A stretch of DNA of 64,000 nt, from contig WFUT01000074.1 of assembly GCA_015484845.1 (NCBI GenBank), positions 19,388 through 83,387 on the forward strand, given 5' to 3'. Both the position numbers and the translations under genes were made by a program. A model generated the notes under the pieces. The model was not told the DNA's origin. It did no database searches and saw only the letters and a program-made list of their open reading frames with translations. This stretch comes from Desulfobulbaceae bacterium (GTDB lineage Bacteria > Desulfobacterota > Desulfobulbia > Desulfobulbales > Desulfobulbaceae). This document shows, in pieces, positions 16,337-23,116 of the stretch (positions within the stretch are counted from its first letter, which is position 1; every line of letters starts with the position of its first letter).

Positions 16337-16938
16337 AACAGCAGGACGGCTGGGAGCGCTACGAGATCCGGTTCTCCGGCTCCGGCGGCCAGGGGCTCAT
16401 CACCGCGGCGGTGGTCTTTGCCGAGGCCGTCGGGGTCTACGACGGCAGGTATGTCTGCCAGACCCAGAGTTACGGGCCCGAGGCCAGGGGAGGCAAGTCC
16501 AAGGCCGAGGTGGTGGTCAGCGATCATCCCATCGACTATCCCAAGGCCCTGGAGCTCGACCTGCTCCTGGCCATGAATCAGGCCGCCTGCGACGCCTACT
16601 TCTATGACCTGAAAAAGAACGGTATCCTGGTGGTGGATTCGACCCTGGTGGAACAGTTCCCCACCTCCCGGGTCATCGCCATCCCGTTCACCGGTATTGC
16701 CCGCGACGAGATCGGCCGGGTCCTGGTGGCCAACATGGTGGCGCTGGGCGCCATCGGCCTGCTTTCGGGCCAGGTCAACCTGGACAACCTGGAAAAGGCG
16801 CTCCTGGCCCGGGTGCCGAAGGGCACCGAGGAGATGAACCGGGACGCCCTGCGGCGGGGAATCGAAGAGGCAGGGAAGATCGACCTGGACCAGCTTCCCC
16901 GCTCGGTCATGAACGAAGACGAGGAGGAATACCCATGA
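16333..16938 (+). CDS. korC: 2-oxoacid:ferredoxin oxidoreductase gamma subunit
   Basis: [22 protein letters not shown] and ANMVALG; ATGA overlap with korB. Confidence 0.92.
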
Positions 16939-17510
16939 AGGTGGTCGCATTCAACGGCAGTGCCCGCAAGAACGGCAATACCGCCATGCTGGTGGGCTAC
17001 GTGTTCGAGGAGCTGGAAAAGGAGGGGATCGGGACCGAGCTGGTACAGCTCTCCGGCGAGCATCCCCATGGCTGTATCGCCTGCTACAAGTGTTTCAAGA
17101 ACAAGGACAGGCGCTGTGCCGTGGACATAGACTGCATAAACGACTGCATCGAAAAGATGGAGCAGGCCGATGGCATCATCCTGGCCTCGCCCACCTACTT
17201 TGCCGACCTCTCCACCGAACTCAAGGCCCTCATCGACCGGGCCGGCATGACCTCGCGGGCCAATGGCGACATGTTCCGCCGCAAGGTGGGGGCCGCCGTG
17301 GTGGCCCGCCGGCGCGGCGGTGCCATCCATGTCTTTGATTCCATCAACCATTTCTTCACCATCGGCCAGATGATCATCGTCGGCTCCTCCTACTGGAACA
17401 TCGGCGTCGGCCGGGAGCGGGGGGAAGTCGCCGAGGACAGCGAAGGGGTCGCCACCATGCGCGATCTGGGCCGGAACATGGCCTGGCTGCTGAAGAAACT
17501 CCACTCCTGA
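16935..17510 (+). CDS. Iron-sulfur flavoprotein (Isf)/flavodoxin-family FMN reductase
   Basis: [11 protein letters not shown], Cys cluster CIACYKC...RC and [12 protein letters not shown]; ATGA overlap. Confidence 0.88.
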
Positions 17511-17856
17511 CCCGCAGATCTTCGCCCCTGTTGCCGCGGGTTGCCCCGGCATGGCTGAGGACGTCCAGGTCCCGGCCCCGACAGGCCATGAAAATGCTGC
17601 CGCCCCACCCGCGCCCGGCGCCGCTTTCCCGGCCGGGCACGGGGTCGGCAGCATGGCTGTTTTGCCGGAACCCTTCCTTTATGAACGACCTTCCCGGATC
17701 CCCCGCTCTTCTTCGTCCTTTTCCCGGCCCCCGGGACCTGCAATTTCACTGAACCTGCTTCGTTTTATCAAGGGGTTGACGTGTTGCATGCTTCTGCGCC
17801 CCTGCTGCCTTGCACCACCTGCGAAATTGCCTGTTGCAGGATTTGGGTGAAAGTAT

Positions 17857-17885
17857 TTGACCTGCATTCCGGCAGACCATATAAC
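17857..17885 (+). promoter_or_regulatory. Sigma-70-type promoter for the zinc-ribbon/HAMP operon
   Basis: TTGACC-N17-TATAAC. Confidence 0.55.
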
Positions 17886-18176
17886 AGAAGAAGAGATGAC
17901 TGTTCGGTCGGCACCCTGGCTGCCACGGTGGTATAACTGCCTGGCACCTCTGCAACTTAGACCGAACGGCATCCATCCCGCTGCCCCGGCGGCGCCGGAA
18001 GAGGCCTTTGGTCCAGGGCCACAATGTGTCAGAAACCCCTGTGCCGCCGTTTCCCGGGCAGATTGCTTTTCCGGTCAGTTCCTGTCGAGGCGCTGGCCGG
18101 TTGTATCTCGCTCCACGGCACGTAACGATTCGTTTGTACGGCTGGATAACCGTATTGCGGGACAAGGAGGAGTTTT

Positions 18177-19229
18177 ATGCTGGTTATCTGCGAGGAATGC
18201 GCAAAGAAATACAACATCGACGAGAACCGGATCAAGGGTGACCGGGCCCGTTTCTCCTGTCTCGAATGCGGCCATATCATTGTTGTCGAAAAACCGCGAA
18301 GTCACTCCTCCGGCGATGCGGCCGGTGAAGAGCTGGCCATGACAATGGCGGGGCAGGATATGGCCGACGATCCGTCCGCGGATGACAGCCGTGCGGCCAC
18401 CGGCGGCAGGAAAGATGCCGGCAGGCAGGGCGCCAGGTCCGGGAAGAGGGGCAGGGGGGTGCCCATCGGTCTCTATCTCCTCGTTGCCCTGACCATCGGC
18501 TTTCTTACCATCACCGGGGTCATGGCCTATCTCTACCTTCGGTACATCCCCGAGCTGATGAACCACCAGGTCGATCTCCGGACCACGGATATCGCCATCT
18601 CCTTCGGCGGTTCGGTCAAGCAGCCCCTGCTGGTGCGCAACTACCTCCTGGTCAACAAGGAGGCGGAACGGATCAGCCGCCTGCCGGGAGTGGCCTATGC
18701 CGCGGTGGTCAACAAGCGGGGTATCGTAGTCGCCGGTTTTTTCAGCGATCTCTCCAGGTTCTCCCCTGATTTCGCCAGGCAGGTGAAGGAAAAGGGCTTT
18801 CCGCAGGTGATTGTCCGGCAGAACCACCTTGCCGCCGGCAGCAGGGAAAAGGACCATGTCTTCACCCTGGGCGGTCAGAAACTGCACGACAAGGCCATTG
18901 CCCTGCCCGATGTGGGCGGCGAGGTCCATGTGGGCATCTACATCTCTGACGTGGACAGGTCGATCAGGAAGGTCCTGCTCTCGCCGACCACGTTCTCCCT
19001 GCTCGGCCTGGTCCTGTTCAGTGGTATCCTCACCTTTTTCCTGATCGCCCGTTCGATCTCCAGGCCACTGCAGGAGCTGACCGAGGTGGTGAACCGGATC
19101 TCGCTGGGTGAACTGGACCTGGCCGTGGAACCGCGTGGCCCACGGGAGGTGCGCGAGCTGGCCTCGGCCTTTGAGCGGATGCAGTATTCCATCAAGGCCG
19201 CCCTGGAACGGATGCGCCGCTCCAGCTAG
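18177..19229 (+). CDS. Zinc-ribbon (MJ0042-like) plus 2-TM periplasmic sensor plus HAMP protein, with no output domain
   Basis: CEEC...CLEC finger, TM1, ~150-aa extracytoplasmic domain, TM2 and HAMP (ISRPLQELTEVVNRISLGELD...EVRELASAFERMQ), then stop. Strong AGGAGG RBS. Confidence 0.85.
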   Translation: MLVICEECAKKYNIDENRIKGDRARFSCLECGHIIVVEKPRSHSSGDAAGEELAMTMAGQDMADDPSADDSRAATGGRKDAGRQGARSGKRGRGVPIGLYLLVALTIGFLTITGVMAYLYLRYIPELMNHQVDLRTTDIAISFGGSVKQPLLVRNYLLVNKEAERISRLPGVAYAAVVNKRGIVVAGFFSDLSRFSPDFARQVKEKGFPQVIVRQNHLAAGSREKDHVFTLGGQKLHDKAIALPDVGGEVHVGIYISDVDRSIRKVLLSPTTFSLLGLVLFSGILTFFLIARSISRPLQELTEVVNRISLGELDLAVEPRGPREVRELASAFERMQYSIKAALERMRRSS

Positions 19230-19334
19230 GCGCCCCGGGATCGGTGCCGCGGCCCGGACGCCCTGCCACGGCGACCGGGCGGGCCGGGGCGATGGTGTTC
19301 CCGTTTCTGACCAATACAAGGAGAAGCAGCAGCC

Positions 19335-20192
19335 ATGACCCACCTCAGACCAAGGCTTATTGTCTGCACCCTGCTCTGCCTGCTCGCCACCGGCTCCCAG
19401 GCCATGGCGGCCTATACCCTGTCCATGCTGCCCCGGTACTCCATCGAGGAGATCCACCGCCGCATCGCGCCCCTGGCCGACTACCTGCAGAGCGCCACCG
19501 GCCTGACCATCAGGCCGGTCCTGGTGCCCACCTTTGCCCGCTACCAGAAACAGCTCGCCTCGGGCATCGATATCGGCTACGAGAATCCCTACATCTATGC
19601 CCTGGCCTCGGGTGCGCACGAGGTCGTTGCCATGGCGGAAAAGGGCAAGGACAACGACCGGTTCCGTGGCATCATCATTGTCCGTGCCGACAGCCCCATC
19701 AGCTCGCTTGAGCAGCTGCGCGGCAAGACCATCTCCATTGTCGGTTTCACCAGCGCCGGCGGCTACCTGTCCCAGAAGCTGACCCTGCAGGAACATGGCC
19801 TGGCGGTGCGCAGGGAATGCCGGGTGGAGGAGGCGCCGGACAACAAGCAGGAGAACGTCATCCTCGCCGTCTACACCGGTGACGCGGATGCCGGTTTCAT
19901 CAGGGAATCGGCCCTGCACAGGGTGGACAACTACGTGCCGCCCGCGGCGATCCGGGTCCTGGCCGAGACGGCCTGGCTACCCAACTGGGCCCTGTCCGTG
20001 CGCCGGTCCATGCCGGCCGCGGACAAGGAAAAGATCACCAGGGCCCTGCTCAAGCTCGCCCCGGACAGCCTTGTGCTCAAGGCCCTCAAGATCAAAAAAT
20101 TCCGCCGCGCCAACGATGCCGAGTACAACAGTATCCGCAGGGCGGCCGGCCTGCCCCTTCCCGCAGCCGCCACCACTCCAGCCAACCAGTGA
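19335..20192 (+). CDS. Phosphate/phosphite/phosphonate (PhnD-like) periplasmic binding protein 1
   Basis: Signal peptide, LSMLPRY, FRGIIIVRADSPI, TSAGGYL, DAGFIRESAL and WLPNWA. Confidence 0.85.
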   Translation: MTHLRPRLIVCTLLCLLATGSQAMAAYTLSMLPRYSIEEIHRRIAPLADYLQSATGLTIRPVLVPTFARYQKQLASGIDIGYENPYIYALASGAHEVVAMAEKGKDNDRFRGIIIVRADSPISSLEQLRGKTISIVGFTSAGGYLSQKLTLQEHGLAVRRECRVEEAPDNKQENVILAVYTGDADAGFIRESALHRVDNYVPPAAIRVLAETAWLPNWALSVRRSMPAADKEKITRALLKLAPDSLVLKALKIKKFRRANDAEYNSIRRAAGLPLPAAATTPANQ

Positions 20193-21022
20193 TCCTCTGC
20201 CGGGCAATGAAAAATTTCCTCCTGCTTTTCGTCCTCCTGTCCGCCGTTGCGGCCTCTCCCTGCCGGGGAGCGGAGTACAACCTCTCCATGCTGCCCCGCT
20301 ACTTTCCCGAAAAACTGACCGCCATGATCACGCCGCTGGCAGAGTATCTGTCGCAGAAGACCGGCCAGCGGATGACCCCGGTGCTCACTGACAACTTTGC
20401 CCAGTACGAGGCCCGGCTGCTGAACGGAACCATAAGGATCGGCTATGAAAACCCGCTGGTCTATGTCAATGTCTCCAGGGTGCACCAGGTCCTGGTGACC
20501 GCGGTCAAGGGCAAGGGAGGCGACCGGTTCCGCGGCATCATCATTGCGCGACCTGATTCCGGCATCAGGTCACCGGCCGACCTGAAAAACAAGAAAATCA
20601 TGATCGTGGGCAGGACCTCGGCCGGCGGCTACCTGTCCCAGAAGATCGCCCTGGCAGGAGTAGGGCTGGACGTGGACCGTGACTGCCAGCTCAGCGTCGC
20701 TGCCGACAACCGGCAGGAAAATGTCATTATCTCGGTGGCCATCGGCGACGTGGACGCCGGATTTATCAGGGAATCCGCCCTGCACAAGGCGGACAAGTAC
20801 ATCGTTCCGGGCTCGGTCGGCGTGGTCTACAGGGCGGCATGGCTGCCCAACTGGGCCTTTTCCGTGGACCGGAGCCTGCCGGCCGCCCTGAAGCAGCGCA
20901 TCAAAAGCGCGCTGCTGGCGCTCGACAGCAAGAGCAAGGTCCTGCAGGCCATGGGCCTGAAGGGCTTCAAGGAGGCCAGGGACAGTGACTACGACGTGAT
21001 GCGGAAATTCAAGACCAGGTAA
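20189..21022 (+). CDS. PhnD-like periplasmic binding protein 2 (tandem paralogue)
   Basis: Same motif set as protein 1. GTG start overlaps the previous stop (GTGA); alternative ATG at 20207. Confidence 0.85.
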   Translation: MILCRAMKNFLLLFVLLSAVAASPCRGAEYNLSMLPRYFPEKLTAMITPLAEYLSQKTGQRMTPVLTDNFAQYEARLLNGTIRIGYENPLVYVNVSRVHQVLVTAVKGKGGDRFRGIIIARPDSGIRSPADLKNKKIMIVGRTSAGGYLSQKIALAGVGLDVDRDCQLSVAADNRQENVIISVAIGDVDAGFIRESALHKADKYIVPGSVGVVYRAAWLPNWAFSVDRSLPAALKQRIKSALLALDSKSKVLQAMGLKGFKEARDSDYDVMRKFKTR

Positions 21023-21032
21023 GCGGAAGAAA

Positions 21033-22025
21033 ATGCTTGTTCCCAGGGAAAAACCATATATGCAGGGGTTGAACAGCTATTACCTGGATATTGCCAGGTT
21101 CGTGGAACACCTGCAGGGAGAGATCGGCTCCGGCTGCATCTACGGCCGGTCCTCGGGCGATGAGATCCTTGTCTATTTCGACGAAAGCGAGGTCCTGCGC
21201 GGCATCATCCAGAACAGCGGCGAGCGGGCACGGGTCTCGCCGGAGCTCAAACCGGTCCTGGCCGCCCTGGGTCGCAAGAGCTTCAACATCGAGGTCTACC
21301 ACCTCGATGCCAATGCCATCTTCTTCTGGGGCCAGTTGCCGCCGTTCAAGCGGGCGCGGGCCACGCTGCGCTCCTCGGACATTCCCCTGCCGGAACTGAT
21401 CTTTCGCCTCAAGCAGAAACGGTTTTCCGGCTTTGTCGACATCCGCCTGGCCGGCAGGGAGGACAGCGCTGTCCTCTTTTTCCACAACGGCCGCCGTGTC
21501 GGAGGCTCCTACTCCTGGGGCAGGGGAGGGCTCAATGCCTCCAACGAGGACTACAACCAGCTGCTGGCCCGGCTCCAGGCCCACCGGGGGCTCTTTGCCG
21601 TTGGCCACTTCCTGGCCGAGCGGGCCAGGCCGGAGGCAAAGAAGGAGACGACTTCCGATGACAGCGATGCCAACGAGGAACTCTTCTCCAACCTGGCCAC
21701 GGCCCTGGAGGAATTTCTTGATATCTACATCCAGGTCATGGCCCGGAAGAAGAAGGCCGAGCCCGTGCTCCGGCTCAAGCAGACCTTCCTCGACCGGCTC
21801 GACGACTATCCCTTCCTTGATCCCTTCCTGGGGATCTTCGACTACGCGGACGGGTCGGTCCGGTTCGCCGACGACGCGCCCCGCAACAGGATCGCCGACG
21901 CCGTGGTGGACTGCGCCTGGCAGGTAATCGACAGTGCCGGCCTGCAGAAGAAGTTCCGCAGCGAACTGTCCAGGTGGTCCTACCGTACTGCCCTCGAGGA
22001 GCGGGGCATCCGGGTGGACCGCTGA
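21033..22025 (+). CDS. Conserved cytoplasmic protein with two DUF4388/PATAN-like repeats
   Basis: Repeat 1 (LDIARFVEHLQGEIGSGCIY...LVYFDESE) and repeat 2 (IPLPELIFRLKQKRFSGFVDI...VLFFHNGRRVGG) resemble the DUF4388 pattern. The domain name is an inference. Confidence 0.55.
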   Translation: MLVPREKPYMQGLNSYYLDIARFVEHLQGEIGSGCIYGRSSGDEILVYFDESEVLRGIIQNSGERARVSPELKPVLAALGRKSFNIEVYHLDANAIFFWGQLPPFKRARATLRSSDIPLPELIFRLKQKRFSGFVDIRLAGREDSAVLFFHNGRRVGGSYSWGRGGLNASNEDYNQLLARLQAHRGLFAVGHFLAERARPEAKKETTSDDSDANEELFSNLATALEEFLDIYIQVMARKKKAEPVLRLKQTFLDRLDDYPFLDPFLGIFDYADGSVRFADDAPRNRIADAVVDCAWQVIDSAGLQKKFRSELSRWSYRTALEERGIRVDR

Positions 22026-23116
22026 GCGGCGCCCCTGGCGGTTGCCGCTTTCCCCCCTTTTTCCGTTTCCCTTCCGGCCAGCTGACCGCAGGCCGCAGAG
22101 ATGTCATCTCCCCGGCTCTGCCGGATAAAGACCGTGTAGCCCCGGCTGCGCAGGATCTCCTGGAAACGCAGGACCCGGTCCCTGCCGGGACTCGTGAATT
22201 CGCCGGAGCCGGTCTCGTTCATGGAGAGCAGGTTGATCTTGCAGGGGACCTGTTCCAGGAGAGTGGCCAGGCGCAGGGCGTCGCTGTCAGAATCGTTGAT
22301 GCCGCGCAGCAGGGTATACTCGAACATGATCCGCTGCCGCCTCTTGCGGGGAAAGGCCCGGCAGGCGGCCATGAGCTCGGCCAGGGGCCAGCGGTCATTG
22401 ACCGGCATGATGCGGCTGCGGGTGGCGTCGTCCGTGGCATGGAGGGATACGGCCAGGTTGACACTGGTCCTGCTGCCCAGCTCCAGCATCTGCGGCACCA
22501 GGCCGCAGGTGGAGACCGTGATCCGGCGGCTGGCAAAGTCCAGGCCGCGTTGCTCGGTCAGGATGGAGAGGGCGTCGAGCAGGTTGGCCAGGTTGGCCAG
22601 CGGCTCGCCCATGCCCATGAAGACCAGGTTGGTCAGGCGACCGCGGTCATGGGCCTGCATCCAGTCGCGCACCGCGCAGACCTGGTTGACGATCTCGGCG
22701 GTCTCCAGGTTGCGGGCAAACCCCATGGCGCCGGTGAGACAGAAGCGGCAGCCCATGGCGCATCCCACCTGCGAGGAGACGCAGAGGGTGTTGCGGTCCT
22801 CCTCCGGGATCAGGACCGACTCGATCATGTGGCCGTCGGCCAGGGGAAAGCCGAACTTGACAGAACCGTCCCGGGAGACCTGGATGACGGGATCAGTGAG
22901 TTGGCTGATCACGGCCCGCTCCTCCAGCACGGCCCGGAATTCCTTTGCCAGGTCGGTCATGGCCGAAAATTCCGGCCTGCCCGGCCGGTAGATCCAGGCC
23001 AGGAGCTGGCGGCCCCGGAAGGCGGGCTGGCCCAGGGACTCGACAAAGGCGATGAGCTGCTCCTGGGTCAGGTTCTTGAGGTCGATCTTTTCCTGTTCGT
23101 CGGGCATGGCGGTCAC
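21980..23116 (-). CDS. rlmN: 23S rRNA m2A2503 / tRNA m2A37 methyltransferase RlmN
   Basis: CVSSQVGCAMGCRFC, VFMGMGEPL, LAVSLHA, FEYTLL and RGDDISAACGQL. Confidence 0.96.
   Translation of the reverse strand: MTAMPDEQEKIDLKNLTQEQLIAFVESLGQPAFRGRQLLAWIYRPGRPEFSAMTDLAKEFRAVLEERAVISQLTDPVIQVSRDGSVKFGFPLADGHMIESVLIPEEDRNTLCVSSQVGCAMGCRFCLTGAMGFARNLETAEIVNQVCAVRDWMQAHDRGRLTNLVFMGMGEPLANLANLLDALSILTEQRGLDFASRRITVSTCGLVPQMLELGSRTSVNLAVSLHATDDATRSRIMPVNDRWPLAELMAACRAFPRKRRQRIMFEYTLLRGINDSDSDALRLATLLEQVPCKINLLSMNETGSGEFTSPGRDRVLRFQEILRSRGYTVFIRQSRGDDISAACGQLAGRETEKGGKAATARGAAQRSTRMPRSSRAVR

Follow-up and report, generated by a model that had tools for sequence, protein, structure and literature searches.

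Question raised by the locus

How a membrane receptor with a HAMP domain and no output domain passes on its signal has been an open question since Af1503 became the structural model of HAMP, and a four-gene locus of a Desulfobulbaceae bacterium raises the same question. The locus lies at positions 18177-22025 of a 64,000-nt stretch of contig WFUT01000074.1, referred to here as the window, and its four open reading frames (ORFs), g1 to g4, were closely packed on one strand in the ORF listing of the window, as the preliminary description of this DNA had stated. It supplies defined candidate partners for such a receptor, namely periplasmic binding proteins and a conserved cytoplasmic adaptor, and gene fusions in relatives indicate which parts should touch. 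With moderate confidence, we read from these sequences a binding-protein-dependent, kinase-less receptor (g1, with g2 and g3) which would signal by contact, via g4, to PATAN/MglA-type switches. The features are listed below.

18177..19229, plus strand: g1, output-less membrane receptor of 350 amino acids (aa), with Zn ribbon, disordered linker, first transmembrane segment (TM1), Cache-like periplasmic domain, second transmembrane segment (TM2), HAMP and basic tail (ORF, Pfam, hydropathy)
18177..18281, plus strand: g1 residues 1-35, MJ0042/Zn_ribbon_4 type Zn ribbon, CxxC...CxxC (Pfam PF13717)
18537..18977, plus strand: g1 residues ~121-267, periplasmic sensor, single-Cache-like (weak sCache_3_2 match)
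19041..19226, plus strand: g1 residues 289-350, HAMP (48.3 bits) and 14-residue basic tail (ALERMRRSS)
19335..20192, plus strand: g2, secreted PhnD-fold binding protein of 285 aa, g2-type (PF12974)
20189..21022, plus strand: g3, secreted PhnD-fold binding protein and paralogue of g2, 277 aa from GTG 20189 (PF12974)
21033..22025, plus strand: g4, cytoplasmic adaptor-like protein of 330 aa, with two tandem alpha/beta domains (1-197), linker (198-212) and helical C-domain (213-330)

g1 belongs to a family of receptors that end at HAMP

The first 35 residues of g1 matched Zn_ribbon_4 with 36.7 bits against a cut-off of 30.3, and the CEEC...CLEC cysteines were legible in the sequence. The best relative of this ribbon in the PDB was the ZnR domain of GltJ/AgmX (7zok, E=0.0012), followed by 2nb9. 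The ribbon was followed by a low-complexity linker of ~60 residues, and hydropathy placed the transmembrane (TM) segments at about 95-120 and 268-293. Residues 135-199 gave a weak sCache_3_2 match in Pfam, and many homologues passed that model; PF17203 was precomputed for many g1 homologues and was also found for the receptor of a Desulfobacterales genome (L103). HAMP occupied residues 289-336, and the protein stopped at residue 350, 14 residues on. Searches of Pfam and NCBIfam found no kinase, HisKA, HATPase, methyl-accepting chemotaxis protein (MCP) or GGDEF domain in g1; in NCBIfam, kinase and chemoreceptor models matched in their HAMP region only, and GltJ gave a weak match at residues 2-82. 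This is the architecture given in the preliminary description, in which the tail had been put at about 12 residues.

As judged from the homologous sequences, the output-less form is the norm of this receptor family. The best 120 listed homologues of g1 were 314-404 aa long and carried Zn_ribbon_4 and HAMP with no further domain, and ~60 receptors, drawn from loci in over 15 GTDB families, all ended 5-20 residues past the second HAMP helix. A basic tail motif, A[IM]ERL[RQ][RK]R, was kept in receptors of more than 15 families. The Zn ribbon was present in Desulfobulbales and one Desulfobacterales-like clade, and the other receptors began at TM1. The uniform stop just after HAMP in ~60 homologues, together with a g1-g2 spacing of only 105 bp, ruled out a truncated kinase or MCP. 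An anti-sigma factor, suggested by the combination of Zn ribbon and TM segment, was also rejected, as the ribbon is of the MJ0042 type and not zf-HC2, and no sigma factor gene adjoined. Since g1 is without enzymatic output, it would signal by direct contact.

The genes of the locus travel together

The g1-g4 genes were conserved together across Desulfobulbales. Public genomes supplied 26 related loci, and in each the receptor came first, followed by zero, one or two binding proteins and then by g4; g1 and g4 were adjacent, apart from these binding proteins, in every Desulfobulbales locus with upstream sequence. The receptor-g2-g3 cassette recurred in Desulfobacterales, namely in Desulfosalsimonas propionicica (L101) and in a 6.4-Mb genome (L103), where a receptor 41-45% identical was followed by a g2-type and then a g3-type gene and preceded by a DUF8082 gene, without g4. 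In a distant family (L072, L076), a binding protein also stood directly after the receptor.

Across the phylum, g4 was found in 49 of 401 sampled genomes, and ~19 kb around g4 was fetched for 40 of the 49. A g1-type receptor adjoined g4 or lay near it in 30 of these 40 loci. Five of the ten loci without a receptor (L092, L093, L095, L096, L097) matched g4 weakly or partly, and these matches may belong to other families. Reduced forms were also seen: the receptor consisted of ribbon, TM segment and HAMP, without a sensor domain, in L012 and L017, and a ribbon-only peptide of 68-84 aa adjoined g4 in L009, L027 and L051. These results suggested that g1-g4 very probably form one functional module.

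Two loci showed further changes. In Desulfosalsimonas, the slot usually taken by g4 after the second binding protein held an EcoEI_R_C fragment and an IS110 transposase (L101:9971-11910), which suggests a rearrangement there. Between receptor and g4 in another locus (L058:10115-10370), two short out-of-frame fragments resembled g3 residues 27-69 and 79-125 (35-45 bits) and may represent a decayed binding-protein gene.

g4 has a confidently predicted fold and no solved neighbour

No Pfam or NCBIfam family matched g4 above cut-off, and its homologues, 259 close ones and 277 clusters at 50% identity, were all labelled 'hypothetical'. The AlphaFold 2 (AF2) model reached a predicted local distance difference test (pLDDT) score of 91 over the whole chain; for residues 1-197 the score was 95.7, with a predicted TM-score (pTM) of 0.89. 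It showed a soluble protein with tandem alpha/beta domains at 1-113 and 119-193, a disordered linker at 198-212 and a helical C-domain. Foldseek searches of the PDB with the full-length model and with residues 1-197 gave no match at E<=0.001, with TM-scores of at most 0.25 and mostly 0.10-0.19; the sliding-clamp matches among them were not real (TM-score <=0.25). The sequence profile of g4 had no match in the PDB either. With a confident fold, no solved neighbour and no entry in Pfam or NCBIfam, this group is a candidate for family definition.

Fusions and neighbouring genes of g4 in relatives

The evidence on the partners of g4 came from fusions and from gene neighbourhoods. In the fusion P0346, found on three contigs from independent samples, a Zn ribbon was joined to the g4 N-domain, and the fusion gene was followed by genes for a receiver-PATAN protein, a 117-aa protein and an MshEN-T2SSE ATPase. 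In the fusion P0333, receiver and PATAN domains were joined to full-length g4. Such fusions would set g4 between the cytoplasmic N-terminus of the receptor and a PATAN regulator.

A neighbourhood survey for co-occurrence with mglA, roadblock and pil genes, proposed in the preliminary description, was positive: distant g1/g4 pairs stood beside MglA, an MglB-type roadblock protein, a PATAN regulator and a PilB-like ATPase. The order in L025 and L058-L066 was Roadblock (MglB-like), MglA-like GTPase, a 265-aa protein, DUF8082, g1, g4, in some cases a PAS/HisKA protein, receiver-PATAN, a second small roadblock-like protein, and a TPR/MshEN/T2SSE ATPase. MglA and/or an MglB-type roadblock lay within 9 kb, inside the fetched stretch, in 21 of the 40 loci, and also in L025, often in company with DUF8082, a PilB-like ATPase and a response regulator of the PATAN type. 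DUF8082 (PF26309) was searched with a custom hidden Markov model (HMM). Upstream of output-less HAMP receptors (L025:3750-4232, L101:6415-6879) it combined a winged helix with a C-terminal half carrying an invariant GPxA; the sole PDB match of this half, in a profile search (alignment A5), was AF1502 (5a1q, STAC domain), which at E=0.11 was not significant.

Proposed mechanism and its alternatives

In the mechanism that we propose, g2 and g3 would bind a small periplasmic ligand, probably an oxyanion, and in the loaded state would dock on the Cache-like periplasmic domain of g1. The conformational change would run through TM2 and HAMP, and HAMP with its basic tail, together with the N-terminal Zn ribbon and linker, would contact g4 directly. 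g4 would act as an adaptor with two PATAN-like domains, coupling to PATAN response regulators and to the Ras-like switch of MglA and roadblock MglB. Because relatives encode this switch together with an MshEN-T2SSE (PilB-like) ATPase, the module's original role was probably to steer a pilus-type machine or cell polarity, although pilus or polarity as the output is put forward only tentatively. Equally speculative is the wider picture of a kinase-less bacterial analogue of a G-protein-coupled receptor (GPCR) pathway, in which binding proteins load a HAMP receptor whose ribbon, linker and HAMP tail, via g4, set the state or location of MglA/MglB together with PATAN regulators; in sulfur-cycling Desulfobacterota, cable bacteria among them, these would in turn govern a pilus-type ATPase or polarity. 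If true, solute sensing would feed straight into polarity switches built on Ras-like GTPases, and such switches have until now been linked mainly with chemosensory or kinase inputs. To our knowledge, motility control in Desulfobulbales, including cable bacteria, is little understood.

Several observations weigh against the proposed coupling of a binding-protein-dependent receptor to PATAN/MglA-type switches. No MglA, roadblock, PATAN regulator or pilus gene was found within ~9 kb here or at the Desulfobulbales loci examined, and the Desulfobulbales flanks were housekeeping genes (2-oxoacid:ferredoxin oxidoreductase, flavin mononucleotide (FMN) reductase and RlmN). Only the receptor end is present at this locus; the GTPase genes lie on a contig other than that of g1-g4, and the cluster's own PilB-like ATPase and second roadblock were not detected in this genome. 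MglA-like genes occurred in 229 of the 401 genomes, as compared with 49 for g4, and six of the 49 g4-positive genomes were not among the matches listed for MglA-like genes at E<=1e-20 (read by eye). Since MglA is far commoner than g4 and these six genomes have no listed MglA, the co-occurrence is weak evidence. The DUF4388 (PF14332) match of g4 itself, 17.8 bits with E=0.0035, was below the Pfam gathering cut-off of 25, and a profile-profile comparison with true PATAN regulators by hhalign covered 36 columns with a probability of 29.5%. Some full-length receptors had no binding protein (L002, L013, L025 and others), and the receptor may therefore also sense directly. Finally, the synteny within Desulfobulbales may largely reflect vertical inheritance.

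The likeness of g4 to PATAN has to be worded with care. Within the g4 family, 14 of 43 members matched DUF4388 at E<=0.05, the best at 2e-6, and the second domain of g4 is its weakly PATAN-like part. g4 thus appears PATAN-like at best and not a member of DUF4388. When it was called a DUF4388-like soluble tandem-repeat protein in the preliminary description, the soluble two-domain part agreed with the AF2 model, and the DUF4388 likeness turned out to be weak and sub-threshold.

Other components of the cluster were scattered over the genome, which is 97% complete and consists of 233 contigs. Contig C186 carried an MglB-like and an MglA gene, the latter 73% identical to the copy in L025; the stretch (C186:673-4704, L098) encoded the MglB-like roadblock, MglA and a 977-aa acidic repeat protein. 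The 'LSLDWEITDE' domain of the 265-aa protein in the L025 cluster occurred at least twice in this acidic protein, which had no Pfam or NCBIfam match. The genome gave five PATAN and three roadblock matches. On C10 we found PATAN-roadblock and roadblock-DUF8082-like genes, and a DUF8082-like gene stood at the edge of C69. C197:8300-12115 encoded a roadblock protein, a metallo-beta-lactamase (MBL)-fold protein, a receiver+PATAN regulator, a ParA/MinD-like ATPase and a protein whose C-terminal domain is a roadblock, and this cluster stops at the contig edge. Two other candidates were discarded: the MshEN-like ATPase on C216 was not in a related cluster, and the candidate PATAN regulator on C19 was an NtrC-type activator. 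Because the contigs are short, some of the dispersed components may adjoin on the real chromosome.

The same facts can be read as a sensor module whose output in this lineage is not MglA or a pilus. Its target would be another one, such as transcription through the winged-helix partner DUF8082 or other PATAN/roadblock modules, and the MglA neighbourhood of the relatives would be one of several wirings. This would fit the g1-g2-g3 cassettes that have DUF8082 beside them but neither g4 nor MglA in the vicinity (L101, L103), the many loci that consist just of DUF8082-g1-g4 (L079-L088, L094), and the g4-positive genomes without an MglA-like match among the matches listed. The DUF8082-like genes on C69 and C10 and the cluster on C197 would fit as well. 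However, the PATAN regulator to which the fusions tie g4 has a roadblock and an MshEN-T2SSE ATPase encoded behind it, MglA and/or an MglB-type roadblock lies near g4 in the 21 loci mentioned above, and the closest solved relative of the ribbon is an MglB-binding domain. We regard an output apart from MglA and the pilus as rather unlikely, and retain contact signalling through g4 to PATAN/MglA-type switches as the preferred interpretation.

g2 and g3 as probable sensory binding proteins

As listed above, g2 and g3 lie between the receptor and g4. They matched PF12974 with 183 and 184 bits, had signal-peptide-like N-termini, and were about 52% identical to each other, with a TSAGGYLSQK loop common to both; the cleft motifs SAGG..SQK, ENV..DAGF and PNW were conserved. 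This agreed with the preliminary description, which had called them signal-peptide-bearing PhnD-like paralogues with a TSAGGYL loop in an operon without PhnC or PhnE. An alternative start of g3, an ATG at about 20207-20210 (MKNFLL...), would give 271 aa. In a tree with only three outgroups, the binding proteins of the cassette formed one clade (99/97) relative to the other PhnD-like proteins of the genome, and the g2 and g3 types fell in separate clades; cable bacteria had a single binding protein of the g3 type, and one other lineage the g2 type only.

Proteins of this kind could be ordinary binding proteins for the uptake of an anion such as phosphonate or phosphite, which serve an ABC (ATP-binding cassette) or other transporter encoded elsewhere and stand between g1 and g4 incidentally. 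They are members of PF12974 that sources label 'phosphonate ABC transporter substrate-binding protein', and the closest solved structures of g2 include the transport proteins PtxB and PhnD beside ArrX (6x6b, E=2.8e-8). The genome is also not closed. However, PhnC and PhnE were absent from the operon, and none was found above cut-off across the 97%-complete genome; the best PhnC-like candidate, the 'PhnC/E-like' locus on C52, was an amino-acid ABC system. Against the PhnD equivalog model TIGR03431, with its cut-off of 261, g2 scored 77.8 bits and g3 74.0 bits. The receptor-g2-g3 order was kept across two orders and in two partner contexts, and no permease or ATPase gene adjoined the homologues of g2 and g3 at any locus examined. 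An uptake role is therefore improbable. Furthermore, binding proteins were never found where the receptor had no periplasmic domain, although the lineages concerned are related; this absence is suggestive only, and would point to partnership with the receptor. All these results suggested that a sensory role of g2 and g3 is likely.

Other PhnD-like genes were seen in the same genome. At C72:8792-11487 (L100), the gene for a 298-aa PhnD-like secreted protein overlapped by 4 bp the gene for a 600-aa TM-HAMP-PAS-HisKA-HATPase kinase, with a sigma-54 activator and a further kinase close by, and this pair is likely a classic binding-protein-dependent two-component system, a precedent in this very genome for a PhnD-like protein teamed with a membrane sensor. 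C6:7120-8598 was one open frame of 552 aa with two tandem PF12974 domains.

A further reading would make the locus a silent leftover of a supercluster that has been taken apart, of which the receptor end survives here. In its favour, the supercluster is scattered in this genome, and relatives have been reduced step by step, with binding proteins or the periplasmic domain missing, ribbons present as separate peptides, g4 shortened and, possibly, the L058 fragments; g4 also occurred in only two of six other genomes of the same GTDB family, one with an internal TGA. Against it, the four frames are intact, they are conserved at 45-95% identity in many Desulfobulbales, cable bacteria among them, and invariant motifs are kept in all the proteins. 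We regard a remnant as very improbable.

Overall, the observations in the preliminary description were correct in every particular, and its interpretation is supported. It had named three outcomes that would speak against it, and what we found was co-conservation of the four genes in Desulfobulbales (and of receptor-g2-g3 also in Desulfobacterales), no PhnCE transporter above cut-off in the genome, and short g1 homologues throughout.

Flanking genes and other features of the locus

The module was flanked upstream by an FMN reductase gene (16935-17510, plus strand) and downstream by the convergent rlmN gene (21980-23116, minus strand). A functional tie to the upstream oxidoreductase/FMN reductase or to RlmN was rejected, as that synteny was seen only in Desulfobulbales and g1 and g4 travel together elsewhere. 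The gap between the FMN reductase gene and g1 was 666 bp (17511-18176), with comparable gaps at related loci, and it contained no convincing ORF, Rfam match or sigma-70-like promoter match. g4 and rlmN shared 46 bp at their 3' ends (21980-22025), without a terminator-like site between them. An Rfam scan of 17300-22300 gave no match, and the matches in a promoter and terminator scan of the locus were not above chance. The region has a G+C content of 63% and contains long antisense ORFs, such as 18075-19919 on the minus strand, which are presumed spurious; strong matches were obtained for the plus-strand genes.

Comparison with known systems

No published description of the cluster, the g4 family or the binding-protein-coupled variant was found in the literature, and both the variant and the family look undescribed. 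The parts have precedents in Af1503-type receptors, conservons, AioX-type sensors and MglA/PATAN neighbourhoods, the last of which are already on record (PMC4316618).

The nearest likeness to the receptor itself is Af1503 of Archaeoglobus fulgidus, in which, as in g1, HAMP is the sole C-terminal cytosolic module and an uncharacterised or small partner is encoded alongside. Effector-less HAMP receptors of this type pair with Af1502 (STAC) partners (PMC4834066). Their trait, TM-sensor-TM-HAMP with nothing beyond HAMP, is present in g1 and ~60 homologues. In contrast to Af1503, g1 is bacterial and has an additional N-terminal Zn ribbon and a Cache-like sensor with PhnD-fold binding proteins, without associated transporter genes. 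Its partner in the window is g4, a two-domain protein of 330 aa unrelated to STAC, and the window has no STAC-type gene.

The actinobacterial conservons (CvnA-D), which are bacterial G-protein systems, resemble the relatives L025 and L058-L066: in each, a single cluster encodes a membrane HAMP sensor together with a roadblock of the MglB type, a GTPase of the MglA type and a small protein resembling a winged helix, and both are thought to signal via the GTPase rather than a response regulator (PMC4316618; PMC13343842). CvnA has a histidine-kinase module that is absent from g1 and its homologues, and there is no DUF742 (CvnC) here; g4, the PATAN regulator, the PilB-like ATPase and the binding proteins are extra parts. 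Unlike in a conservon, the roadblock and MglA-type GTPase are not in the operon of the window, but occur in distant relatives and on another contig of this genome.

PATAN (DUF4388) regulators of the cyanobacterial PixG/PatA type offer a further parallel, since g4 clusters encode receiver-PATAN beside an MshEN-T2SSE ATPase, and such regulators are reported to interact with the type IV pilus motor (bioRxiv 10.1101/2021.06.11.447907). By comparison, g4 has no receiver domain and falls below the Pfam cut-off, and the window has no pilus gene.

For g2 and g3, the closest parallel is AioX/ArrX, where a PhnD-fold periplasmic protein is likewise encoded beside a membrane sensor, without a transporter, and serves as a ligand-binding receptor subunit (PMC5908839; review PMC8050422). 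Those proteins pair with a histidine kinase (AioS/ArrS) and a response regulator and have a transcriptional output, whereas g1 has no kinase and no regulator gene adjoins it; moreover, two paralogous binding proteins are retained as a pair here.

Finally, GltJ (AgmX) of Myxococcus xanthus shares with g1 an N-terminal cytoplasmic MJ0042-type ribbon, a disordered linker and a membrane anchor. Unlike GltJ, g1 has no GYF domain, stands outside any Agl-Glt gliding machine, and carries a sensor and HAMP. In GltJ, the ZnR domain is the part that binds MglB, and MglA-GTP attaches to the linker next to it (PMC11135422); by analogy this likeness is taken as a lead for the role that the ribbon and linker of g1 may have.

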